Source of the DNA: Candidatus Poseidoniaceae archaeon
Lineage (GTDB): Archaea; Thermoplasmatota; Poseidoniia; Poseidoniales; Poseidoniaceae
Direction: 5' to 3'
Assembly (NCBI GenBank): GCA_943789275.1
Contig: CALSTM010000001.1
Span: 150,001-182,000, forward strand
Length of the DNA stretch: 32,000 bases
Below are positions 15,348 through 32,000 of this stretch, piece after piece. Every line of letters starts with the position of its first letter. The first letter of the stretch is position 1. The notes under the pieces were generated by a model, which was given only the letters and a program-made list of their open reading frames with translations, searched no databases and was not told the DNA's origin. Position numbers and translations under genes: made by a program.

Positions 15348-18300
15348 ATGGAGGAGGGCTTGAAGGCATTGAGCCCCATGCTACGCGAGACTGCCCCCCG
15401 CCGAACCGCTTTGACAATCTTCCTCGTCTCGATGTTCCTGTTCGCAGATGTTCTTCTGCCTCAGTCCATCGATTTTGAACAGAAACTCGATGATTCACCG
15501 CGTATATCTTACGCCATATCGACGCAATCTGTACTTTCTGATACGCACATTATGGAAGCGAATCCATCCAGCAACTACAATGTTTCATCGAGTGGTTTTA
15601 TTGGGACTTCGGTCAACGGATTTGAGAGCAGAATCCTCATGGACTTTGCTATGAATTTCACCTCTGCAGACTCGATTCAGTCAGCAACATTGAACATCGT
15701 TTGTGATACGAGTTCATCGTCTCCTTCTGCAATGAATATTTACACAGCATCTCCAAGTTCGTGGAACTCGAGTCTTGTCACATGGTATCAAAACGATTTG
15801 GGCTCGCCATGGGGTGAAGCAGGTGCAGATGGTGCAAATGACCGCAGTGCTTGGGAACCACCATTCCGAGCAGTGTCCAATGGAACATATGCCATTAACG
15901 TGACCGCATTTGCTCAAGAAGCAGCCTCAACCAATCAACCCCACTTCAGCGTCCTCATTTCCGGATTAGGTTCTCATTTCGAATGTAAGATGTCTGAAGC
16001 TTTACCGGTGAGTGATCGGCCTGAACTGGTGCTTGTCACATCGGCAGTGGCAGCCGGGAACGGTGGTTCAGTCGTGTCAAACTTCGCCGACGACGGTTTG
16101 CCTTTAATGACGGGAGACCTCATCTTGACAGCAGATACTACACCGACCCTTTCTTACGATTCGTTGGTGGGAACACATGTCGAATACCAACTCTCACTCG
16201 ACTCGGAATTCAAGGATTTCTCCGACCTTGCATGGCACTATTCGACCATGCAGAACAGTTTTACAATGTCCGGTACAAGCGGTTCGTTCACTCTTCCTTC
16301 GTCCGAGCAATTCGATAACGGTTCTCGAGTCTATTACCGGGTAAGAAGCCTTGATACGACCGACACGCTCAGTACATGGTCCACGACAGAAACTTTCCTG
16401 CTTCCTGCACACACAGTTACCGATAACGGTGACGGCTCGGCAAGTATCGAGGTAACTCGAAACCAATTGGGTGATGTTGGGACATTCATCGAAGATTCCT
16501 ATTCCAACGAACTGAGCAAGAACACGAAAAACGGTGCTTCAACAACCCTTCAAACCAGCGTCACTTCAAACAAGGAATCTCTTGTTCATCTGCGAGTAAA
16601 TTTACCGCTTCTTGGCCTACCATCCAATGCTACAATTCTCGATGCGCAAGTAAACCTAACTCGTGATTCCTCAGCGAACAATCCAATGCTTTCGATGCAC
16701 GAAATGGCATCAACTGAATGGGTCGAAAACGAATTGACATGGAACAGAGAATCGAATGCAAACAGTTGGTCCGATGGAGGACGGGTGTTTGCATCGACGG
16801 CATCTGCAACTGGATTCAACGGTTCGCAAACCAGTTCCAACTTTGGGTTTGGCTTCACCGACGTATTGCAATCATGGGTTGAGAACGGAGAATCAGATGC
16901 ATCAGAATTTATGATTACTGCAAGAGGGAAGGACGAAGCATACTCCACCACAGGTACCAAAACCATGACGTTTTTCAGTACTGAAGCCACGCTTGAATCG
17001 AATCAACCTCACGTTTTCGTGAATTATCGATGGGGACCAAGTTCTCCACTCGCTGATGTCATCTTAACCGGTCCAGCAGAGGACGAAGCAGTTTGGAACC
17101 AATCAGGACACAATTTCACTGCGAATCTCACGCCTTCGATTACCTGGACTCCATCTGCTACGAACAATGAGATGCTGTTGCAGATGGCCACAGATGAACA
17201 ATTCAGAGACCTGACCATGTCGCTCAACACCGGTGTGGACAATGATTTCTCGCCTTCCGATGGCATACTCAACTTGACGGGTGAAAATACATTGACAGCC
17301 GGAAACATGTATTTCTGGCGAATGGCTTACCTTGACTCTGATGGCCGACAAGGGCCTTGGTCTTCATCGAATTTCCTCGTGAGTTCCCTTGAAAGCACTT
17401 GGCTTGGTGGTGAACGCTCAGAATTTAGAATGAAGCATGGAAACGGTACAACAGACGGGTTGTATCCTGAATGTCTCGACACGTACATCGACAGCGGTAC
17501 GCCAAATCAAAACTACAACGATGAATCAAAAATTCTCATATCGTACAACACTTACCCGATTGAAGCGTTAGGTCTATTGAACTGCAACCTCCGTTCGAAT
17601 CTCCTGCCGGCAGGATACGCTGTCGAATCTGCACAACTCTCGATGGTTGTGGCCAGTACTCCATCGAATTCACCGCGTGTTGCCGTTTGGGAAAACACGC
17701 TCAGCAACTGGACGGATAGCGGTGCGACGTGGAACTCTTATGATGGAACCAATTCATGGGCAACTGCAGGCGCAAAGGGCTCAGAGCGTTCCTCCCTTCT
17801 CGATTCAGTTCAACTTGATTCTACCTTTTCAAACGGCGACCGCATCTTTTGGAACGTCACACTGGGTGTTCAAAACGCAATGCGCCAAAACAGCAGTGCT
17901 GACTTCATGATTGGTATACTTGGTGTTGGTTCAGGTTCAGACCGTGAAGTGCAACTTTATCCAGGATTTGCTGCTGATGTCCGTAAACCCGAATTGACCT
18001 TTGTCTATGTGCCGGGCTCAAACGTGGTTCCTGTTGACCCAGTGCCGGTCTCTCCACTCAACGGCTCATGGTCGATGGGTACCGGTGTTGACCAAACGCC
18101 GATTCAACGTCCAACGCTTGAGTGGTCCTTCGGAAATACCGCTGGCGTCGGCGGATGGGCAGTGCAACTTGACAAATCAGAAACGTTCGATTCAGCATCG
18201 CTTCTCACCAGCACTTCATGGAACGATGCAGGCTTTGACGCAGCGAACCTCTCCTATACTCCTACCACTGATTTGGACGATGGTTCAACTTGGTATTGGC

Positions 18301-21300
18301 GCGTTCGAGCGATCTCACCGACCAACCAAATTGGAAACTGGTCAAACGCATTTACCTTTGCTGTTCCAGATTTGACCACTTGGCAAACATGTTCCGATGG
18401 TTCTTGTGCTTCAGTGGAATTGCATCACAGAGAGGCCATGCCGGATTTGAATTTACCGAACTTTGTCGACACCTATGTTCTCCAGTCGGGTTCCGGTTCG
18501 TCCACTACCTATGACACTTCAAGCCAACTGAAAGTCGGTGCAACCAGCAACAATGTGCAAGCACTTTCGCTGCTACGTATTCCGTTGAATTCCTTACCTC
18601 AGCCGGCGAACGCTCGCATCACGGGTGCTGAACTGAATCTGTATTCTGAGTTCAATTCAGCCGTAGGTGAGCCAATTGCCGTACGGCCTGTGTATCAAAA
18701 TTGGAACACGTCCGCAAACGGACTTACGTACGACGGCATCAACAATTGGTCACAGCCAGGTGCTCGAGACCTCGGTGTTGACCTTGGACCCTATGTTGAC
18801 CTGCAGGATTCAGTTGCTTCTGGCTGGATGAATTGGGATGTAAGCGAAGCTGTGCAAGCTGCACTAACGGCAGGTTCATCGACACTCTCACTGGCCATTT
18901 ATGCATCAAATGACATTACTTCGTATTCCAACGGACCCAATGTTGTGACCTTCACTTCCACAGACGGCGCATCATCTCAACACCCGTGGTTGAACTTAAC
19001 TTGGTCCAACGGCACAGGTTCAGTACCCGCAACATCCGGTGTCAACGCTGGACCAGCGAACGATTCACTGTCTTGGGATGCATCATCCCATGCCTTGATT
19101 TCAGATGAAACCCCTCTTTTCTCTTGGACGTATCCATCTTCAGTCTCTGCTGACGCATGGCGGGTCCATATTTTTGCTGACCCGAGCGATGACATGGCAG
19201 GGCGATATACCTTTGATTCACGGGACGTTCCGGCACAGTTCGATTTGACGAACTTAACATTCTTGCCGAGTTCTCCTGTTGACTACTCCCAAACCGTTCG
19301 GTGGACCGTTCAGCCGATTTTACTCGGAATGATTGGCCCTCAAAGTACCTCAACTGTCTTCCACGTACCGGACGCAGATTCTGGAGAAGTTAATTCTACA
19401 CATGCATGGGTGACTTTGCAAGAAGGTTCGATGGTCGAAGATCAGGGCTATCCAATGATTACCATGGACACCACGCTGAATGGAGGTAGTATTTTCGCCA
19501 ACAACGGTGCTTCACAAAATCTCATCGTCGGGCGTAGTCCTTCCAACAGTCTTCTGCGAACCAGTTCTCTCATCGAGATGGATTTCTCCTCGTTACCGCT
19601 TCCAGCAATCTACGAAGTGACGAATGCAACACTGACGCTAACTGGGGTTTCGGGAAGTGGAGAAGTGTTTGTGACCGTTTCTGAAATGATTACACAGTGG
19701 GATGAATCCTCAAGTTGGGCGTTCCCCGGTAACAACACGACCTCTTGGGTCGGAGTTGGCGCATACCATTCTGATGATTCCAATATTCCTGAAACCCAAG
19801 GTTTCTGGATGAATGAATCGACGGAGTTTGAAATCAACGTGACATCGATGCTTCAGCACGCTGTTGAGAGAGGCCAACAAAGCCTCAATATCATTCTGCA
19901 AGCGGAAGAGTCGATGGGAACAGTCTCTGGAATCTATTACATTGCGAGCAGTGAGAATGCAGCTATTGACGAGCGTCCTAAACTCACGATAAGTTACGAG
20001 CTCGATACCCCGTGGAATCCGACCAGCCCGTCAAACCTTGGGCCGGTTGACGGTTCAACGCTTTGGAATCTCACTTCACCACTTCCAGCGGGCGCTGATG
20101 GAGTTGAAACCAATTGGACATCTGCCGATTCCAATCAAACTCAATGGGTTCTTTGTGGCGCTATGGACGCTCGTATGGTCGAAGAACTTGAGTGTTTCAA
20201 TTCGACTGCGTCCACATTTGATACCGATTTGAACATCACTTGGGATGCTCAGAACCTCTCAGCATTCATTGAAGGTCTCGAACAGGCTGATGAATGGAAG
20301 TATTGGCGCGTAAGAGGCGACCAAGATGTGCGAATTGGTCATTGGTCTCACGTTCACAAATTCCGCATCCCGGACGTGAATCCGTATGATGCTTCTACTG
20401 ATGGCCTTGGGAATTACACGGTCACCCTCACACGTGGTGCCATCTTTGAGAACACGGGTCTTCTTCCAGCAGTGCCGGATGCGGAAATCTCTTCCTCGAG
20501 TACGGTGAATCTTGGTCTATCAACTGCAATGAACTTAGGGACTTCAGCGTCGGGTACCGGTGAAAGTCAAATTCTCATGGAGTTTGATCTGAGTTCACTT
20601 CCATGGCCAGCTGCAATTACACCCACATCCATGTTGCTCAATTTGTACCGAACAGGTGTGACAGGAACTTCAGCCACGACCGTGTCTGCACACGCTTGCT
20701 CTCCGTTTGTAGAATCAAGCGTGAATTGGAACACCAATGTCCCATGCCAGTCCAGCGAAATTACTCGCTCGACACTCACTTTGAGCCCTGCGACAGGTTG
20801 GGCTTCTTGGGATTTAACGAGTCTGGCTCAAAGCAATATTGCCAACGGTAATTTGACCATGACCATTCTACTGAAGACGGTCGGTTCACCATCGACAAGC
20901 CACGCATTCTATTCTTCGGATGGAAGCGCTACAGAGTATAGACCTCAGCTTGTCATCGACTATGTCGATAACGTCAACGGTATATTGCCGCCAGCCCAGC
21001 CTACACTCACATCCCCTCAAGACGGCTCAGTGCTTTACAATGTGTCCGGTGATGTACTCCAATCGGATGACCGGCCAGTTCTCGTTTGGTCGCCAGTTTC
21101 TGGCGCTACGGGGTACACCCTCACCATCGCCAACGAAACTGGAGTTGTCAAATACAATTCGTGGGAATCTTCGGCCATTACATCAACGACGTTTAGATTT
21201 GCGAATTCACTTACAAGCGGTGAAGTGTTTACTTGGTGGGTGCAAGGGGTCAATCAATCGATTCCTGGCCCATCGTCACCACGATGGACCTTTGCGATTG

Positions 21301-24300
21301 GTTCACCGAACCATGTGGATAACGGCGACTTAACCTACACCTACACGTTCCAGACTGGGAATGAAGTGTCCCAGTTTGGACACACCAACATTCGAGAGAC
21401 TCACCTTAGTGAGGCATATCCATCGACGAACTTTGGTGGTAATGATGTTTTGGAACTCGGTACCAACTTTGGTTCGAACTCAGGACTTCAATCCCACCTT
21501 ACCTTTGCATTGGACAATGGACAAGTTCCACTCGCTATGTATTCAAACGTTCACTCAGCAAGTGCAGGGTTCTACCTCGATTCTTGGACAGCAACGGGTG
21601 GCGCATCGGAAATGACATTCAGTGTGCACCGAATCCTCAACCCTCTATGGGCCCAATCCTCATCGACTTGGAATGAATCCTCCAGTGCCTCTTCGGGTGC
21701 CTGGGGTGCGCCTGGTATGCAAGCAGGAGTCGACTATGAAGCAACGCCGATCACCAGTTTTGTCGATTCCAACATGAACGAAGACCGATGGATTTGGTTT
21801 GATATCGGTGTCAATGGGATGCTTATCGATAACGACAATGCATGGATCATAATCGGTACCCCGAATCAAGGCACGCTTCTGGCGAATATTTACTCAAGCG
21901 AACATTCTGAAGCAGACTATCGCCCAATGATTTTGCTGAACCATACCGATGTCACTACAATTGATATTTCACCAACTGCGCCAACGACGGATGCGGATAG
22001 CACTGTGTCGTTTTCCAGCGTCGTATATGACCATCTCAGTATGGCATCAGGAGCGCCGGTTGTATGGAGCGCTAGCAACGGTTCGATTTCCCAATCTGGA
22101 GTCTTCACGCCTTATGCAACAGGCCAACATACCGTATCTGCATGCTTTGGAATCATCTGCAGCAGTGAAACGGTCACGGTCACTCCGGGCTCGCCAGTGG
22201 AACTGATTGTAACCCCTGAAACTGCAATTATCTCTGCTGACGACTCCTTACAAATCAGTGCTTATGTTGTCGACCAGTTTGGCAATACAGTATCTGGTCA
22301 AACCATCAACTACTCACCGAGCAACGGCAGTATGGATTCTTCGACTGAAGGACTGTTCATGCCGATGGCGAGTGGTACTCAAACGGTCGATGTCACATGG
22401 AACGGTGTTATGATGACCCCACAAACCATCACTGTATCCGTTCTTGTTGAGACAGGCATTCCAGCTTACTTTGTCCTCGAAGGTTGCCAAGGTGCAGTAC
22501 CCGCAGGCATACTTTGTGCCGTCACGCACACGCTTTACGACCAGTTCGGAAACGAGATTATCGATAACAGCGAAGCAGGTGATTTCACTTGGACAACGAC
22601 CAATGGAAATTACAGTGAATCTACCGATGAGTATTTCCCTGACCATGTGGGCGATTGGTACCTCAACTTGACATCAACATCAGGTGCTTCTGGCTCTTTG
22701 ATGATTACCGTCGACCATGGCCAGATGGCAAGTCTTGAGTTGGCTGCCTCCTCAACTTCAATCACTGCAGACGAGCAAGTATGGATTAACACCACTCGTA
22801 TCGACGTCCGAGGAAACCGTTTGCCGGTTCTTCTTGAACTGGATAACTGGGTCACTCCACAGGACAGCCAATTGCTGCCTGGCGCACCTGCGATTTGGTC
22901 ACCAACTTCACGCGGTGCTAAAATCATTCAAGCAACCTACGAAACCATTACTTCTGAGATCACAGTTACTGTACAAGAAGGAGCAATCGTGTCGCTCATT
23001 TTAATCGTTGACAACAATGTTTCGACTTGGCAAAATTTCGATATCACTTCGGATGATATTCTCGATGTGAAGGTCAAGGCATACGACCAGAAAGACAACC
23101 GTTGGATTGTATCAGCGAATTGGAGTTTACTTCATCCAGATTGGACATCACAAACAGCGCTCGAACAGTTGTCTGGCGACGAAACATCGTTTGTCCCTTA
23201 TCTTGCATCGACTGAACATTACACCATTACAGCAGTGTACGATGATGGAACAATGACTCACCAAGTAAGCATCAATGTCACCGTTTCCCACGGTGACTTG
23301 AACTCTGTTTCCATAGTTGCAACCGGTAACGATGGATTAGCAAACACCGTTTTCGATATCACTTCGGATGAACACATCGACTTTACCGCTGCTCTTGCTG
23401 ATTTGGATACAAACCCAATCGATTCGTCAATCCTCGGATGGTATTTGACCAATCTCGATACTGGCGACACGTCGGTAATTACCGATGAACTGCTTGCCAA
23501 CGGTATGCGTTGGGATGCTTCGGCAGTTGGGAACTGGTCGATCTCCGCTTCAGCAGTGAGTGATTCAGGATACAACATCAGTGACGCTGTTTCAGTTTCC
23601 GTTGTCCATGGCAAGGCCGTTCTCGTTGAGGCCGTTCTCGATGCAACCACTCAAACAGCTGGCCAAGAAATCACGATGGTTGTAACTGGAACGGATTCGG
23701 ATGGAAACACATTCCCCCAACTTGTTGAATGGTTGGAGAATGATGTCGCTGTGGCCAACATTACAGCAGGTGAAAATGAAGGAACGTATGTTTACTTGGC
23801 GACCACAGCCGGTGCGCATTCATTGAAGTACACGACTGGCTCAACTGATGCTACTGTTGTGGTCACCGTTGAAGCACAGCGTATTGTCGACTCTCTTCAG
23901 ATTGATATCTCATCGACGACGGTTGACCAATTATCAAACTTTACAGTGACTGTAAAGGCTTTTGACATGTATCTCAACCAAATTGAAGTTCCACCAAGTG
24001 CGAATATCGATGCGACTGGACGAGCAGAAGTTTTGCAAAAAGGTCCGGGCGTTTGGAATGTGATTACTCTTGATGACGGGCAACAAACTGTGACGATTAC
24101 CGCTGGAAAAGTAACTGAAGAAAGGAACATCGAAGTCGAAGGAAACATTGGTGGATTCTTCAAGGCCGGTGGGCCATTGTACTACGTCGGAACCGGTCTT
24201 CTCGTGATTGTTAGCATTGTTCTTCTCGGCTTACTGGTCTCTGTGCTACGTGGTGGTGACTCAGGTTACGATGATGACGATGACGAGTATGATTACGATG

Positions 24301-27407: not shown

Positions 27408-29060
27408 TCATTCTTCGCTTTCATCGGATTCGAAAGCCAAGAAGAATTCATCGATGTCGATGACTCCGTTTTCGTCCAGGTCGGCGTTGTGGAATATGCA
27501 TCGTGATTCATCGACAGAATACTCAAAACCGAGCGCTTTCAAAGCGCTTTGGAATTCACGCAGGGTGAGGTGATTCTTACCGCCAAGGTCAGCAGCATGG
27601 AATGCTGCGAGGCGTCGTTCATGTTCGGCAACAGTCGTAAACTTGAATTGCTCTCGAAACGATTGAACCGGTGTCCTTTGATATATGGCGTGCTTTTTGC
27701 CGTAGAGGTAGTAGGTTGCAGCACCTGAAAGAACCGCTGCGCCACCGCCAATGAATGCTTTTGTGCCGATGAAACTGATCAGTACGGCACCAGCAAGGAT
27801 GCCCCAGATGTGGATATAGGGGTACAATGGGGCTTTGTATTTTGGATTCCAATCGTGCTCCTTACTTGTTCTTCGAAGAATAATCACACATGTGTTGATC
27901 ATAATGAAAATCATGATTTTGAATCCAGAGGCAAGTTTGACCACGTCCTTCAGTGGAACAAACAGAATCGCTAATCCCATAGCGACCCCGGTTACTAAAA
28001 TCGGCCAATGCGGTGTTTCAAAGCGAACATTGACTTCTTCGAGAGCTTGGGGTAGCAGGTTGTCGCGTGACATAGCAAACAAAAATCGAGACGAAGCCAA
28101 TATTCCTGCTAAGGCCATGGAAATCATTGTGAGAACGGACAAAATCGCTGCGAATATTCCGAACTTTGTTCCGGCTACTTTCTCAGCGAAAACAAAAATC
28201 GGGTTTTCTATAACGACTCCATCTTGAAGCCACCATTCACCAGGAATCGCAGCCGTCATGAGGTAGGCAATAGCAGAATAGAGGACAGTTGCAATCAGCA
28301 GGGAGAGCATGATTCCGGCAGGGAGGTTACGTTCAGGATTCTTTACTTCACCGCCAATGGCAGCGACCTTTGTTACACCTGCATAGGCTACAAACACGAA
28401 TGCTGCAGCTTCTGCAAGCGACCACACGCTTGCATCAAAGGCCTCAGTGAAAGGTCTCTTCGCATCAAAGTCATCGACAAAGAGTGCAGCAATACAGATG
28501 AATACCAACAAGGCGACCGTCGAGAATACAATCGGCGTTTGAATGGCTTTCACCTTTGAAACACCGAAGATGTTGACCATCGTGATGAGTACTAAGGCGC
28601 TCATGGAAAGTACCATGATGCTGATCTCCACGTCAAAATACGTCGTAACAACGATGAGATAAGCCGAAAAGCCAATCAAAGCAAAAGCGGATTTGAGTAA
28701 AAAAGAGGCCCACAGCCCGAGGCCGCTGATCGTTCCAATAAGCGGGCCGTAGGTTCGTTCCAAATACACATAAGACCCTCCACTGGAAGGCATGCCAGAA
28801 GACAATTCCGATTTTGAGAGTGCGCCGGGAAGGACGACAGAAGCTGCCAGAAGATAGGCCAGCCATATTCCCGGGCCCATGATTTCAGCAGCAAATGTTG
28901 GCGTCACAAAAATACCAGGTAACATAGCTGAGAGCGAAATGATGACTACACCAGCAAGTCCAGTGGTTCTTTTCAACGTGTTTTTCAGCTCGGTGCCCGC
29001 AGAAACGAGCACGCTTTTAGGTTTCGAACTTGCCATGTCAAATCCCCGATTTCCGACCAT
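27408..29060 (-). CDS. APC-superfamily amino acid permease with C-terminal EF-hand pair
   Basis: The 550-aa ORF has an ATG start (ATG 29036 is an alternative). The core has about 12 TM helices with APC-type motifs (SLSAMLPGIFVTP.., LSKSELSSGMPSSGGSYVYLERTYGPLIGTISGLGLW). The C-terminal 70 aa are soluble and contain EF-hand loops. Confidence 0.85.
   Translation of the reverse strand: MVGNRGFDMASSKPKSVLVSAGTELKNTLKRTTGLAGVVIISLSAMLPGIFVTPTFAAEIMGPGIWLAYLLAASVVLPGALSKSELSSGMPSSGGSYVYLERTYGPLIGTISGLGLWASFLLKSAFALIGFSAYLIVVTTYFDVEISIMVLSMSALVLITMVNIFGVSKVKAIQTPIVFSTVALLVFICIAALFVDDFDAKRPFTEAFDASVWSLAEAAAFVFVAYAGVTKVAAIGGEVKNPERNLPAGIMLSLLIATVLYSAIAYLMTAAIPGEWWLQDGVVIENPIFVFAEKVAGTKFGIFAAILSVLTMISMALAGILASSRFLFAMSRDNLLPQALEEVNVRFETPHWPILVTGVAMGLAILFVPLKDVVKLASGFKIMIFIMINTCVIILRRTSKEHDWNPKYKAPLYPYIHIWGILAGAVLISFIGTKAFIGGGAAVLSGAATYYLYGKKHAIYQRTPVQSFREQFKFTTVAEHERRLAAFHAADLGGKNHLTLREFQSALKALGFEYSVDESRCIFHNADLDENGVIDIDEFFLAFESDESEE
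27411..27620 (-). other. EF-hand pair (one canonical, one degenerate Ca2+-binding loop) at the permease C-terminus
   Basis: Loop 2 is DLDENGVIDIDE (27447-27482). It fits the 12-residue EF-hand consensus at positions 1, 3, 5, 6, 8, 9 and 12 (D-x-D-x-N-G-x-I-D-x-x-E) and has flanking helices (SRCIFHNA / FFLAFE). Loop 1 is DLGGKNHLTLRE. It keeps positions 1 and 12 and the hydrophobic position 8, but lacks ligands at positions 3 and 5. Confidence 0.7.
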
Positions 29061-29144: not shown

Positions 29145-30572
29145 TTATTCAAGAACCGGGGCCTTGGCGATGACCTTCATCTCTACCGCAATTGGTGTAG
29201 GCAAGGCTCGAATCGCTAGTGTTGTGCGAGTTGGTCCAACCTTACCCAGCGTTTCAGCCCAAACTTCGTTGTATCCTTTGAAATCCCGATCCATGTCGAC
29301 AAGGAATGAAGTAACATCCAAAACATCGTTAATCGAACCACCTGCTTCTTCAAGGATGCGTGTGATGTTTTCGACCACAGCATGTGTTTGTGCTTTGATG
29401 TCGTAATTGAGCGTCTTTCCATCAGCGTCATGTATTGGACCGCCAGGAATCGAATTGGTCCCAGGTTGGCGCGGTCCAACACCAGAGAGGTACAACAAAT
29501 CCCCAACTCGGCGTGCGTGCGGATAGGCACCAACGGGTTTTGGAGCTGCATTGCTGTTGACAGAATCATCACTTTCAGTAGGCTCCCAAAGGGCGGGTCC
29601 ATTGGTTTGTGTGGGTGCAGTTGAGGGCGATTGATTCACGGTTCCTTCTTCATCGTTTTGCGCATCCAAAACATTTCGTTCCCCTAAGAAGTACTCGACA
29701 TCGTCTTCATCATACTCCTTGTCGCCAGCGCCCGATGCTGTAGGGTCGAGGTGTACAACTGCACCACCAGCACCATGCAATGCTTCGTAGGCTAGGACCT
29801 CACCCGTCAGATTGTTTCTGTTTTGGTTCATTCCAGAGAGCCACCACATTGGTTTGAATGCAACGACTTTGTTGACACGTATTTGCTGATGTATGGTTCG
29901 TGAAAGTTGACCGACATCTTCGAGTCGACCTTCGCCTAAGAATTCCAAAATTTTACGGTTCCATTCATCGTCTTTCAACGAGTGAATTTGATCGTCCAGT
30001 GGATCAATTGGCTTCGTGAACATTCTGTTTGAAAGTGACATTGCAGTAATGGCAACCGCTTTTCGTCCAGTTGATTTGACAACATCCATACACGCTTTAG
30101 CAAGAACAGTCGTTTCCGCACGGTTTGCATACACATTCGAGGAAACGATGACTGCTGGTATGGCGTTGTCAGGGTTGAGTAATTTCAGTGCCACCACTGA
30201 GCCAACATCGATTGGAAATCCATGATAAGCAACTGTTCGGCTCTTTAAGCCACGCTTCTCGTTGGCTTTGTTCCATGCGTGAGCGAAGTTTTCATCGATG
30301 TTGAACGAATAGGGGATGGAACCCAAATCGTGGAAGTCATTGTCCACCATGACCCATTCAGGATTTGGGTCAGCAATGATTTGATGTCCAATGATGCTTG
30401 GCCACGTCGTCGAGTAAATGATGAGAAGGTCTGCCCCACTGTCCTTGATTCGTTGCGATGCTTCAGAAAAGGCATCTCGCAAGCGACCCCAACCTTCGTT
30501 TTGGTCTGCTGCTAAAACGGTATGTGGATGGACCGGCACGATGTACGAGCCTACCAGTTCTCCGTTGCTCAT
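29145..30572 (-). CDS. fusion protein: degenerate LigB-type (class III extradiol dioxygenase) alpha-like subunit, acidic linker, and RidA/YjgF/UK114 domain
   Basis: aa 1-275 are homologous to the upstream gene product (VPVHPHTV vs LAPHPPHLV, HGFPIDVGS vs RVDYGTITTG). However, they read YSTTWPS where the partner has LSPHWQT, and MSLSNRMF where the partner has NSLSHRHF. aa 341-475 (29148-29552) are a clear RidA-family domain (APKPVGAYPHARRVGDLLYLSGVGP...HAVVENITRILEEAGGSINDVLDVTSFLVDMDRDFKGYNEVWAE..GPTRTTLAIRALPTPIAVEMKVIA). The ATG overlaps the upstream stop codon (ATGA at 30569-30572). Confidence 0.8.
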   Translation of the reverse strand: MSNGELVGSYIVPVHPHTVLAADQNEGWGRLRDAFSEASQRIKDSGADLLIIYSTTWPSIIGHQIIADPNPEWVMVDNDFHDLGSIPYSFNIDENFAHAWNKANEKRGLKSRTVAYHGFPIDVGSVVALKLLNPDNAIPAVIVSSNVYANRAETTVLAKACMDVVKSTGRKAVAITAMSLSNRMFTKPIDPLDDQIHSLKDDEWNRKILEFLGEGRLEDVGQLSRTIHQQIRVNKVVAFKPMWWLSGMNQNRNNLTGEVLAYEALHGAGGAVVHLDPTASGAGDKEYDEDDVEYFLGERNVLDAQNDEEGTVNQSPSTAPTQTNGPALWEPTESDDSVNSNAAPKPVGAYPHARRVGDLLYLSGVGPRQPGTNSIPGGPIHDADGKTLNYDIKAQTHAVVENITRILEEAGGSINDVLDVTSFLVDMDRDFKGYNEVWAETLGKVGPTRTTLAIRALPTPIAVEMKVIAKAPVLE

Positions 30573-31483
30573 TCACTCGCCTCCTTGTGGTGGCGTTCCG
30601 GCCATTCAACAATGGCGTTTCCAGTTCCGATGATGGTGCCGTATCCGTGCAGGATGCCCGGATAATTGGGGACGTCGAGCGTTGAGAGGAGCCATGACAA
30701 TCCCCCGCCATCGCTTTCTGCTATCGCCTGTTCAGTAAATTCTGGCATTTCATCAAGGATACGTTGCGATTGACCAGTTCGGAAGTATTCAATCATACGC
30801 ATGTCCCAGAGATGCATGGCATGACTGGCAATATGTTCCTTACTCATATCTTCAGGAATGGCGGATTCAGTGGTGAAATGTCGATGGGAGAGTGAATTGC
30901 TGGCCAAAACAACAACTTTCTTGCCACTTGCAAGGATTGCTTCTCGAGTCACACGGCCGAGTTCAATCATCATCTCCTGCATGACTTCAACCGAGTAGTA
31001 ATCTCTTGAACGGTTGCTTGAAATGACAACAAGTGGCTTGTCCCACTGAGGATTGAACATATGTCCAGTGGTAATTGTCCCGTAGTCGACTCGAAAGTCA
31101 GGGTTTTCCATCATCTTGACAGCGAGCCCAGCATCAGCTGCTCGGTCGTGAATTTGACGAGACAAATCGACATCGATGTTGAGATCATAGTGGTAACGGA
31201 ACAGGTTTGGGAACACGGGGTCCACCGAGAGGCTCTTGAACGAAGGTAGCCCAAGGAAATGTGTCCCAATGTATGTTTGCCAGTGTGGGGAAAGTAAGAC
31301 GATAGCATCGTAATCAACATTGGCAAGTGATTCTCGCAAGCGCTCATACCCCCATCGCAATTGTTCCCATCCACCTTCTGCAGTGGGTTCATTTTGCTCC
31401 GGATTTTCAGCATACACCAGGTGGGGAGGGTGTGGTGCTAAGCAGCCTGCGACGATTTCGCCCTTCGACATGAGCAAACCCAT
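30569..31483 (-). CDS. LigB-type class III extradiol ring-cleavage dioxygenase, catalytic (beta-like) subunit
   Basis: Candidate metal and catalytic residues are present in the family order: GCLAPHPPHLVY, IVLLSPHWQT, LASNSLSHRHF, AIAESDGGG. The track ORF begins with TTG at 31552. ATG codons at 31531, 31483 and 31471 are alternatives. The later ones place the first His about 13-17 residues from the N-terminus, as in LigB/AmnB-like proteins. Confidence 0.8.
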   Translation of the reverse strand: MGLLMSKGEIVAGCLAPHPPHLVYAENPEQNEPTAEGGWEQLRWGYERLRESLANVDYDAIVLLSPHWQTYIGTHFLGLPSFKSLSVDPVFPNLFRYHYDLNIDVDLSRQIHDRAADAGLAVKMMENPDFRVDYGTITTGHMFNPQWDKPLVVISSNRSRDYYSVEVMQEMMIELGRVTREAILASGKKVVVLASNSLSHRHFTTESAIPEDMSKEHIASHAMHLWDMRMIEYFRTGQSQRILDEMPEFTEQAIAESDGGGLSWLLSTLDVPNYPGILHGYGTIIGTGNAIVEWPERHHKEASE

Positions 31484-31572
31484 GCATCGGGGGATTATAT
31501 CGGCATCGGAGAATGCCTCTTCTCTTACCATCTTGACCGAACCCTCAAACAAGGTGGAGTTTTGGGTGTAAT

Positions 31573-32000
31573 ATGGAGCCGGCAGAGGTGGATGTTGAAG
31601 TCCCGGTTCGCACCCCTTTCTTGATGCGAGCGTTTGATTTCAATACCGGCTTACGGCACATTATCGCTCCAGCGCTTATCGGCGTGGTCTTGGGTGGTTT
31701 CTGGCAATACAGTGTCATGCCGAACATTGGTGAAATCAATTTGCCAAATCCGATTCACGGTGCGTTCTTCATCAGTATTCTTTTGTCTCCACTTCTCTAT
31801 CGAATTCTCGTTGGAGACGATATGTCTCGGTGGATGGAATACACGTTCGGCCTCACCTTGCTTGGCCTGATTTTCTCGGTCATTTGGCTTTCAGGTTGGG
31901 GTGCAGTATTTTGTGGTGGATACGGTGCTTTGTTGGTGTGGGTTTGGATCAGCACAGACTGGGGGCGCTATGACCTTCCTCCGTTCCGTTACGGATTGTG
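31573..32000 (+). CDS. integral membrane protein, N-terminal fragment (continues beyond the window end)
   Basis: Frame 1 is open from ATG 31573 to the window edge (142 codons, no stop). It reads MEPAEVDVEVPVRTPFLMRAFDF..IIAPALIGVVLGGFW..GAFFISILLSPLLYRIL..YTFGLTLLGLIFSVIWLSGWGAVFCGGYGALLVWVWI, which gives several TM helices. It is absent from the ORF track because no stop codon is reached. AGGTGGAG lies 13 nt upstream. Confidence 0.5.
   Translation, partial: MEPAEVDVEVPVRTPFLMRAFDFNTGLRHIIAPALIGVVLGGFWQYSVMPNIGEINLPNPIHGAFFISILLSPLLYRILVGDDMSRWMEYTFGLTLLGLIFSVIWLSGWGAVFCGGYGALLVWVWISTDWGRYDLPPFRYGL

Follow-up and report, generated by a model that had tools for sequence, protein, structure and literature searches.

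Among the closest described systems, AmnBA of Pseudomonas sp. AP-3 (PDB 8IHG) and the 2-amino-5-chlorophenol 1,6-dioxygenase CnbCaCb of Comamonas CNB-1 (PDB 3VSG-3VSJ) are each built from two paralogous LigB-fold subunits encoded in the order beta, then alpha. AmnBA and CnbC form alpha2beta2 complexes. In the gene order amnBACD, AmnBA makes 2-aminomuconic 6-semialdehyde, AmnC oxidises it, and a deaminase yields 4-oxalocrotonate and ammonium; the semialdehyde also cyclises spontaneously to picolinate (PMC3790839). Here, we describe a related gene pair in a stretch of 32,000 nucleotides of a Candidatus Poseidoniaceae archaeon (assembly GCA_943789275.1, contig CALSTM010000001.1, positions 150,001 to 182,000, forward strand), hereafter the window. 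The upstream gene of this pair, amnB, is predicted to encode the catalytic beta subunit, and the downstream gene encodes an alpha subunit that continues through a linker into a Rid (YjgF/YER057c/UK114) domain. The component families and the first three steps of 2-aminophenol degradation are known, while the fusion of the alpha subunit with a deaminase appears to be undescribed.

Both genes lie on the minus strand. Based on matches in the PDB, conserved residues, and a conserved start, the amnB-like gene spans 30569..31471 and encodes 300 residues, counted from M28 of the listed open reading frame (30569..31552, minus, 327 residues counted from a TTG). We rejected the TTG at 31552 as the start in favour of the ATG at 31471 (M28, MSKGEIV), because this ATG is conserved while the sequence upstream diverges: it is kept in 80 distinct upstream sequences of Marine Group IIa (MGIIa) loci, and the DNA 5' of it differs among these loci and often contains in-frame stops. 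The MSKGEIV start also agrees with the N-termini of solved amnB homologues. The AmnA-Rid fusion gene (29145..30572, 475 residues, from the list of open reading frames and Pfam) overlaps amnB by ATGA at 30569-30572, as the first-pass annotation of this DNA had noted and as can be read in the sequence (ATG at 30572-30570, TGA at 30571-30569). A perfect Shine-Dalgarno-like AAGGAGG (30580..30586, minus) lies within the 3' end of amnB, 7 nt ahead of the fusion gene's ATG; this motif and the overlap together argue for translational coupling of the two genes. Overlaps of 4 or 8 nt likewise occur in distant homologues (L141, L093, and L091).

The upstream product matched Pfam LigB (PF02900) with 69.0 bits, against a cutoff of 26.3. 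Its best matches in the PDB were the beta subunit of 2-aminophenol 1,6-dioxygenase (8ihg_A, E=5e-106), 3vsg_B (9e-104), and 7txy_B (7e-90), and it shares 52-54% identity with the catalytic beta subunits CnbCb and AmnB. By comparison, the match to the DHPA dioxygenase 8iq8 reached only E=2.6e-5, and the score with the HpaD_Fe model of 3,4-dihydroxyphenylacetate 2,3-dioxygenase (TIGR02298) was 75.4 bits, under the NCBIfam equivalog cutoff of 315.95. The catalytic residues, proposed earlier to be intact, are all conserved in alignment A1: H13, H62, Y129, H195, and E251 (CtAPD numbering). According to PMC5291488, which cites Li et al. 2013, H13, H62, and E251 are the Fe(II) ligands of the Comamonas enzyme, and Y129 and H195 are second-sphere residues. 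By these similarities, AmnB is a predicted catalytic beta subunit of an Fe(II) extradiol dioxygenase of the 2-aminophenol-1,6-dioxygenase type, with a 2-His-1-carboxylate iron site.

The fusion protein begins with an AmnA/CnbCa-like non-catalytic alpha domain (residues 1-280; 29733..30572, minus), of which residues 15-268 matched Pfam LigB with 40.4 bits. In the PDB this domain lies closer to alpha subunits (3vsg_A, 1.3e-36; 8ihg_B, 9.8e-33; 7txy_A, 5e-32) than to the best beta subunit (4.8e-27). At the positions of H13, H62, Y129, H195, and E251 it carries V, T, V, N, and N, comparable to AmnA and CnbCa. The first-pass annotation had described a degenerate LigB paralogue, and the check it had named for this part of the protein gave just that, a LigB-like domain without its metal ligands. 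The same positions are degenerate in essentially all of the 83 other fusions examined, two rows of which are misaligned over-extended reading frames. These comparisons bear out the earlier view that the two products would assemble into a class III extradiol dioxygenase like AmnAB and CnbC, an alpha/beta heteromer in which one subunit is catalytic and the other degenerate.

The interdomain linker (residues ~281-335; 29568..29732, minus) is acidic, as previously described, and measures ~55 rather than ~65 residues. It is predicted to be disordered: residues 281-334 have a pLDDT below 50 in the AlphaFold 2 (AF2) model of the fusion protein, a model of moderate quality (pLDDT 64.8) that we used solely for this purpose. 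Linker length and sequence differ between lineages, and the linker is nearly absent in the homologue P0130 (alignment A2). Within MGIIa, two linker motifs are conserved, EYDEDDVEYFxGERNVLD (residues ~283-301), partly retained in the 53%-identical homologue P0121, and GPALWEPT (~321-328). Either motif might serve to dock a partner such as the dehydrogenase or the beta subunit.

The C-terminal part of the protein (residues ~336-475 and the stop codon; 29145..29567, minus) is a complete RidA/YjgF domain, in line with the original description: residues 342-470 matched PF01042 (Ribonuc_L-PSP) with 83.7 bits (cutoff 27.3), and the match spans positions 3-120 of the 121-position profile. The Pfam matches of the two proteins are far too strong to be put down to chance. 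Its best match in the PDB was 6izh_A, the 2-aminomuconate deaminase of Pseudomonas sp. AP-3 (96.9 bits; best generic RidA, 77.9). It contains an extended loop of 25 residues that aligns without large gaps to the 22 residues of AmnE, whereas generic RidAs are gapped by ~13 residues. The Arg of its GPTRTT motif aligns with the Arg of the P-A-R motif in PH0854, TTHA0137, ST0811, and AmnE, is invariant in alignment A2, and corresponds to the active-site Arg105 of Salmonella RidA. In a library of 1.84 billion proteins, the nearest Rid relatives included other fusions, whose Rid parts are 45-60% identical to the domain of the window. One of them, P0124, joins an aldehyde dehydrogenase (ALDH) to three tandem Rid domains, and its ALDH part, the one such part among the Rid-ALDH fusions that we compared in this way, best matches 2-aminomuconate-6-semialdehyde dehydrogenase (AMSDH). 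P0249 and several fragments join an ALDH to one Rid domain, and P0218 (1014 aa) combines an ACMSD-family amidohydrolase, an ALDH, and a Rid domain. By these "Rosetta-stone" fusions, the 6izh match, and the loop, the Rid domain is assigned, at the level of sequence, to the 2-aminomuconate deaminase (AMD) clade. Enzymes of this clade speed the deamination of 2-aminomuconate and not the hydrolysis of 2-iminopropanoate; human RIDA is inactive on 2-aminomuconate, whose unaided half-life is ~160 min (bioRxiv 10.64898/2026.06.05.730449). As separate observations, P0218, a three-in-one protein of the lower kynurenine branch, seems of interest by itself, and P0250 fuses a Rid domain to TrmO_N.

The possibility that a frameshift or misassembly had joined separate amnA and Rid genes, named beforehand as a test of the fusion, was rejected, and we give it no weight. 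The identical 475-residue protein is encoded on at least 22 independent contigs of up to 754 kb, its homologues form more than 3,000 protein clusters, and lineages only 35-41% identical carry the fusion with different linkers. The top 120 of these clusters are all two-domain proteins of 464-487 residues from independent assemblies. In a collection of species-representative genomes, 571 of 599 candidate stretches encode a relative of the fusion; the best 80 of these are nearly all labelled Poseidoniales/Poseidoniaceae and include the original MG-II genome (CM001443.1). Further full-length fusions at 35-54% identity were found at the level of 50%-identity clusters (P0121, P0123, and P0130), and a metagenome scan seeded with these three recovered 80 further loci with a GC content of 0.26-0.72, many of them from soil. 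The fusions of these loci share 37-43% identity with the query P0130 and 44-81% with whichever of the three references is closest. Overall, the fusion occurs in many soil and marine bacteria in addition to Poseidoniales. Its database names are automatic, such as "Rid family hydrolase" or "2-aminomuconate deaminase". We found no description of a LigB-Rid fusion in a survey of the Rid family (PMC4433059) or elsewhere in the literature searched, and nothing relevant there on these genes in Marine Group II. Two contigs binned as Rhodobiaceae (L068, CALDQY010000115.1) and Verrucomicrobiales (L074, NZEQ01000011.1) have an amnB and a fusion gene of the MGII type, at 76-78% identity to the window's, with full MGIIa synteny in L074; these are most likely binning contamination.

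The first-pass annotation had also remarked that the window holds no dehydrogenase of such a pathway. This is correct for the window itself, but the enzyme is not missing: an AmnC-like ALDH is encoded ~1.7-3.2 kb past its end. On the continued window contig, turned so that the fusion gene reads along the plus strand (L001), this gene lies at 5422-6882 and encodes 486 residues. The protein's seven best matches in the PDB are all 2-aminomuconate-6-semialdehyde dehydrogenases (E ~1e-139), and it scored 468 bits with the AMSDH 4u3w, against 400 for the best other ALDH. Its best NCBIfam model was TIGR03216, 2-hydroxymuconic semialdehyde dehydrogenase (547 bits, under the cutoff). Towards amnB, the L001 genes encode a 428-aa protein, an asparaginase-II-like hydrolase (PF06089), the ALDH, a LON-N-domain protein, PanB, and, on the opposite strand, a small membrane protein. 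This order is retained in ~80 MGIIa species, which is weak evidence of function, because the genomes are closely related.

The distant relatives, in contrast, provide strong evidence that the cluster is functionally linked. In L089 and L090, whose fusion is 41% identical to that of the window and whose contig looks bacterial, an uninterrupted same-strand array encodes an SDR, a 428-aa-type protein, the asparaginase-II-like hydrolase, the ALDH, AmnB, and AmnA-Rid, with identities of 42% (428-aa orthologue), 56% (hydrolase), 46% (ALDH), and 57% (AmnB). In L141 and L152, six genes with 4-nt overlaps encode the 428-aa-type protein, the hydrolase, the ALDH, AmnB, AmnA-Rid, and a PF04199 protein, which in L141 is a true homologue of kynurenine formamidase (KynB; 4cog, E=7e-45, full length); a divergently transcribed gene for tryptophan 2,3-dioxygenase (TDO; PF03301, E=2e-64) adjoins them. 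Similarly, L117 has the order PLP-decarboxylase, TDO, SDR, 428-aa-type, hydrolase, a small open reading frame, ALDH, AmnB, AmnA-Rid, KynB-like. TDO was found in L125 and L157 as well, giving five loci in four lineages. The ALDH gene lies directly upstream of amnB in L089, L093, and L141.

We counted neighbours in 83 loci seeded outside MGIIa, many of them partial. About 50 of these loci have amnB ahead of the fusion gene, and 50 have a KynB-like gene behind it; the ALDH is present in 30, the asparaginase-II-like hydrolase in 26, and the 428-aa-type gene in 22. An all-against-all clustering of six-frame open reading frames proved too noisy in high-GC DNA owing to shadow frames and was replaced by targeted tblastn maps. 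When fusion proteins were grouped at 65% identity into ten clusters, these maps showed AmnB among the neighbours of nine, the ALDH and the hydrolase among those of seven each, the 428-aa-type protein and the KynB-like protein among those of six each, and TDO among those of two. The 428-aa protein itself had no match in Pfam, NCBIfam, or the PDB by sequence or profile search. Its AF2 model is poor (pLDDT 50); still, a Foldseek search with it gave luciferase-like oxidoreductases for all of the 47 best matches, type II Baeyer-Villiger monooxygenases among them. The L089 orthologue of the protein scored above the PF00296 cutoff, and some NCBI/JGI records name the family luciferase or LLM-class oxidoreductase. 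We accept the fold class, that of the luciferase-like (LLM-class) flavin or F420 oxidoreductases, of which the protein is a divergent member, and assign no specific function. Among the loci with annotated neighbours, none encodes kynurenine 3-monooxygenase, kynureninase, 3-hydroxyanthranilate dioxygenase, or ACMSD.

Taken together, these data make it probable that the complex cleaves an o-aminophenol, that the dehydrogenase oxidises the resulting semialdehyde, and that the tethered Rid domain deaminates 2-aminomuconate. AmnB/AmnA would open the ring to 2-aminomuconic 6-semialdehyde, the AmnC-like NAD-dependent ALDH would oxidise this to 2-aminomuconate, and the Rid domain would release ammonium from it by hydrolysing the enamine/imine, which leaves 2-oxohex-3-enedioate (4-oxalocrotonate). 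Through their coupled translation, AmnB and AmnA-Rid would be made at a fixed 1:1 ratio, and the fusion may serve to hold the deaminase where the unstable intermediates arise. The earlier suggestion that the ring-cleavage product is channelled straight to deamination does not follow from this scheme: the known substrate of the deaminase, 2-aminomuconate, is made by AmnC, and therefore the fusion would tether the third step to the first. For the ring-cleavage substrate we favour 2-aminophenol or a close analogue, based on the 52-54% identity of AmnB to aminophenol enzymes, on AMSDH and the deaminase as partners, and on the lack of ACMSD in annotated loci. The substrate had previously been left as an aminophenol- or catecholamine-like compound; the KynB and TDO neighbours in relatives point to an o-aminophenol derived from tryptophan or kynurenine rather than to DOPA or catecholamines.

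Several observations weigh against this three-step scheme. The margin of the Rid domain's best PDB match over generic RidA is moderate (97 vs 78 bits), and the domain scored 81.7 bits with the canonical RidA model TIGR00004, a value under the NCBIfam subfamily cutoff of 106.25, for which reason we do not file it as a housekeeping RidA. The MGIIa ALDH gene is separated from amnB by panB, the LON-N-domain gene, and an opposite-strand gene, and is therefore not on the amnB transcript. In ~25 loci of one soil lineage, the fusion gene occurs with no amnB within 10 kb; hence, alpha-Rid may not always pair with an adjacent beta subunit there. Genes for 4-oxalocrotonate decarboxylase, 2-oxopent-4-enoate hydratase, and the aldolase are absent among those called within 10 kb in L001-L008, as is acetaldehyde dehydrogenase. 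Lastly, a Rid trimer placed on an alpha2beta2 core would combine two-fold with three-fold modules, a symmetry mismatch. The AP-3 2-aminomuconate deaminase is a hexamer of two trimers, and Rid active sites lie at the interfaces between the subunits of a trimer (PMC6742747). A linker this long and flexible could accommodate, for instance, two Rid trimers in an (alpha-beta)6 assembly, and the joining of dimer-forming and trimer-forming domains may force an unusual higher-order assembly.

One alternative, which corresponds to the direct channelling of the first-pass annotation, keeps the same enzymes and swaps their order, such that the Rid domain deaminates 2-aminomuconic 6-semialdehyde to 2-hydroxymuconic semialdehyde, in competition with the cyclisation to picolinate, and the ALDH acts afterwards, as a 2-hydroxymuconic semialdehyde dehydrogenase. 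A semialdehyde deaminase reportedly operates in the 4-amino-3-hydroxybenzoate pathway of Bordetella sp. 10d, which counts for this order, as does the fact that the fusion partner is the dioxygenase and not the dehydrogenase, the most direct arrangement for intercepting the dioxygenase product. The semialdehyde, known to leak to picolinate (PMC3790839), would share with 2-aminomuconate the 2-amino-acid end recognised by Rid enzymes, and the top NCBIfam model of the ALDH is that of the corresponding 2-hydroxymuconic semialdehyde dehydrogenase. Yet the ALDH's best PDB matches are AMSDHs, and characterised members of this Rid clade use 2-aminomuconate; moreover, the same clade is fused to the dehydrogenase in other lineages, which fits the canonical order at least equally well. 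We consider the swapped order unlikely, and the oxidation of the semialdehyde before deamination remains our preferred order.

The soil loci that lack amnB raise a different question, namely, whether alpha-Rid is a stand-alone deaminase whose LigB-like domain serves ligand binding or oligomerisation, the adjacency of amnB being merely operonic. In these ~25 loci the fusion gene sits between a KDPG/KHG aldolase gene and a KynB-like gene, and AmnA-like domains are elsewhere fused to ABC permeases (P0210 and P0219), which would suit such a role. However, amnB could sit elsewhere in those genomes, the solved AmnA/CnbCa homologues (3vsg, 8ihg, and 7txy) are all obligate partners of a beta subunit, and amnB lies immediately upstream in the window and in nine of the ten fusion clusters, often with an overlap of 4-8 nt. 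For the window, where the overlap is accompanied by a ribosome-binding site, we judge this explanation improbable. Still less credible, to the point of being hardly worth entertaining, is a catechol- or DOPA-type dioxygenase joined to a generic RidA that guards against enamines such as 2-aminoacrylate and has no part in ring cleavage. AmnBA-type enzymes do also cleave catechol (PMC10470539), and the Rid domain retains the generic RidA Arg along with its 81.7 bits to TIGR00004. Nevertheless, AmnB is 52-54% identical to aminophenol enzymes and only remotely similar to the DHPA dioxygenase; the closest relatives of the Rid domain are 2-aminomuconate deaminase and the Rid parts of AMSDH or ACMSD fusions, a specialised clade that, as cited above, leaves 2-iminopropanoate unhydrolysed; and the deaminase gene serves as the specific marker by which the amino branch is told from the catechol branch (PMC10470539). 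Cleavage of an o-aminophenol followed by oxidation and deamination of 2-aminomuconate thus stays the interpretation that we carry forward.

Where the aminophenol would come from is less firmly indicated. Its source may be kynurenine or N-formylkynurenine, acted on by the luciferase-like monooxygenase and the asparaginase-II-like hydrolase that are conserved along with the pair. From gene context and chemical plausibility we draw the possibility, which we put forward tentatively and with more doubt than belief, that AmnB/AmnA-Rid is the ring-opening core of an undescribed route of tryptophan/kynurenine catabolism in which kynurenine 3-monooxygenase, kynureninase, 3-hydroxyanthranilate dioxygenase, and ACMSD would all be bypassed. 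In chemical terms kynurenine is an o-aminoaryl ketone, and the luciferase-like flavin monooxygenase would carry out a Baeyer-Villiger oxidation on the aryl ketone of (N-formyl)kynurenine. If the aryl group migrates, the product would be the beta-(2-aminophenyl) ester of L-aspartate. The asparaginase-II-like hydrolase, of a kind suited to recognising a beta-aspartyl carbonyl, would then cleave this aryl ester (or anilide), releasing 2-aminophenol or 2-formamidophenol along with L-aspartate. With N-formylkynurenine as the substrate, KynB would act last, deformylating 2-formamidophenol. AmnBA, AMSDH, and the tethered deaminase would then produce 2-oxohex-3-enedioate and ammonium. The 4-hydroxyacetophenone monooxygenase/esterase route is a known analogue of this logic; for a kynurenine-to-2-aminophenol or Baeyer-Villiger route, we found no description in the literature searched.

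TDO and KynB were not found within 10 kb in the MGIIa loci. These loci typically encode an APC-family amino-acid permease with a C-terminal EF-hand pair (27408..29060, minus; AA_permease_2, 9e-40; EF-hand_7, 3e-8), whose gene lies 84 nt downstream of the fusion gene on the same strand in the window, follows it in most MGIIa loci, and is absent, for example, in L023-L028. From its position, this permease is a candidate importer of the pathway substrate. Together with a nearby SDR and a BD-FAE-type hydrolase and the absence of TDO and KynB within 10 kb, it fits the uptake of exogenous kynurenine in MGIIa. If so, Marine Group II would scavenge carbon and two nitrogens from kynurenines in sunlit seawater, formed for example from photo-oxidised tryptophan. 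Separately, a calcium-binding EF-hand tail is unusual on an archaeal amino-acid transporter, and the combination is retained in other MGIIa loci.

The remainder of the window identifies it as a chromosomal piece of MGIIa (Poseidoniaceae), with housekeeping genes for an eRF1/Pelota-like protein, GatD, the RFC small subunit, and formate-THF ligase. A gene for a small membrane protein without a Pfam match, 158-175 residues in full in L001-L008, starts divergently from amnB (31573..32000, plus), runs past the window end, and keeps its position in MGIIa loci. About 26 nt 5' of the amnB ATG, the sequence shows an A/T-rich box, GATATAAT (31494..31501, minus), and an equivalent box (GATATAAT, GATATAGC, GATATATC, CCATATGA or GAATTAAA) occurs at equal distance in most other MGIIa loci while the flanks diverge. 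We infer that GATATAAT is a candidate archaeal TATA box, which would imply a leaderless or very short-leader transcript. A sigma-70 promoter and terminator scan of the window was set aside because the host is archaeal. In MGIIa, genes for an SDR and a BD-FAE/Peptidase_S9-type alpha/beta hydrolase stay paired (L001, 1-1068; L005, 13461-15059) and lie no further than 10 kb from the amn genes, on a side that differs by species, and this SDR is 40% identical to the one heading the bacterial operon in L089. Elsewhere in the window, a tRNA at 12872-12998 (minus; Rfam, 52.6 bits), missed by ARAGORN, spans 127 nt against a model of 71 positions, which indicates an intron of ~50 nt; a GatD-like reading frame (11424-12923) overlaps it, and its TTG start is probably over-extended. 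Two very large plus-strand genes with a 22-nt overlap encode products of 3073 aa (15348-24569), with CBM96 and disaggregatase-repeat matches in the L001 gene table, and 903 aa (24548-27259), with a C-terminal transmembrane segment and an acidic tail; both are probably cell-surface proteins.

Other loci and proteins show further arrangements. In the soil lineage, the KDPG/KHG aldolase, AmnA-Rid, and KynB-like genes are tightly packed (L118, 9196-11961; L111, L122, L126-L140, and others), and here too the fusion has a degenerate LigB domain. No family could be assigned to a 330-aa reading frame that precedes the aldolase gene in L118, and this frame is perhaps not a gene. Between the ALDH gene and amnB, 11 soil loci (12 with L106, a duplicate of L105) encode a protein of 415-440 residues without a Pfam match (L105, 6090-8667, where it is duplicated in tandem; L103, L104, L107, L109, L116, L119, L133, L138, and L156). 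A gene for a FadL/TodX-type outer-membrane channel lies upstream in L097, L109, and L116, three such clusters with annotated upstream genes. In P0210 (983 aa) and P0219 (1034 aa), an AmnA-like LigB domain (31-32% identical) stands behind an ABC branched-chain-amino-acid permease domain (BPD_transp_2), which ties a degenerate dioxygenase subunit to a transporter, and P0219 additionally has a BD-FAE/Abhydrolase_3 hydrolase domain.

Compared with AmnBA and CnbCaCb, the pair has in common a beta subunit that retains H13, H62, E251, Y129, and H195 at about half of the residues identical overall, and an alpha subunit that has lost these positions. Unlike them, its alpha subunit carries a linker and a Rid domain, its host is an archaeon, amnC is not adjacent, and no lower-pathway genes amnE/F/G/H occur within 10 kb in L001-L008. 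The 2-aminomuconate deaminases (AmnD or AmnE of AP-3, PDB 6IZH; NbaF; and the fungal and Burkholderia AMDs) share the Lp2-type loop, the Arg, and the AMSDH context. These free-standing enzymes are ~140 residues long and form trimers or hexamers (PMC6742747), whereas the window's domain is covalently tied to a dioxygenase subunit, a tie that should constrain or reshape its oligomeric state. The canonical amnRJBACD(FEHG) and cnb operons encode the same first three steps (dioxygenase, dehydrogenase, and deaminase), and in amn operons the Rid-family genes amnJ and amnD already flank amnBA (PMC3790839). Here, by contrast, the neighbours are the luciferase-like monooxygenase, the PF06089 hydrolase, and the SDR, to which relatives add kynurenine formamidase and TDO, and the annotated loci contain no MarR regulator, nitroarene-reducing genes, or lower pathway.

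With the lower branch of the kynurenine pathway (HAAO, ACMSD, AMSDH, and AMD), the cluster shares AMSDH and AMD, and its bacterial relatives also have kynA (TDO) and kynB. It differs in having no KMO, kynureninase, HAAO, or ACMSD in annotated loci: the LigB-type AmnBA replaces the cupin HAAO, and the luciferase-like monooxygenase and the asparaginase-II-like hydrolase occupy the place of the missing steps. This company suggests a missing branch of tryptophan catabolism, one that in every annotated locus does without the four canonical middle enzymes. MGIIa, throughout which these genes are conserved, rank with the most abundant archaea in surface seawater, are uncultured, and have a diet that is mostly inferred; the genes offer a testable class of substrates for this group, the o-aminophenols and possibly the kynurenines. 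A final parallel is the ARO bacterial microcompartment of Actinobacteria (dioxygenase PDB 7TXY), in which the same three early enzymes and their reactive intermediates are kept together (PMC10470539). The microcompartment uses a protein shell and an unfused alpha subunit, whereas the window uses a covalent fusion. The AmnA-Rid protein would thus be a natural tether between the scaffold subunit of a dioxygenase and the deaminase acting two steps on, meeting the same task as the microcompartment, the control of unstable, self-cyclising intermediates.

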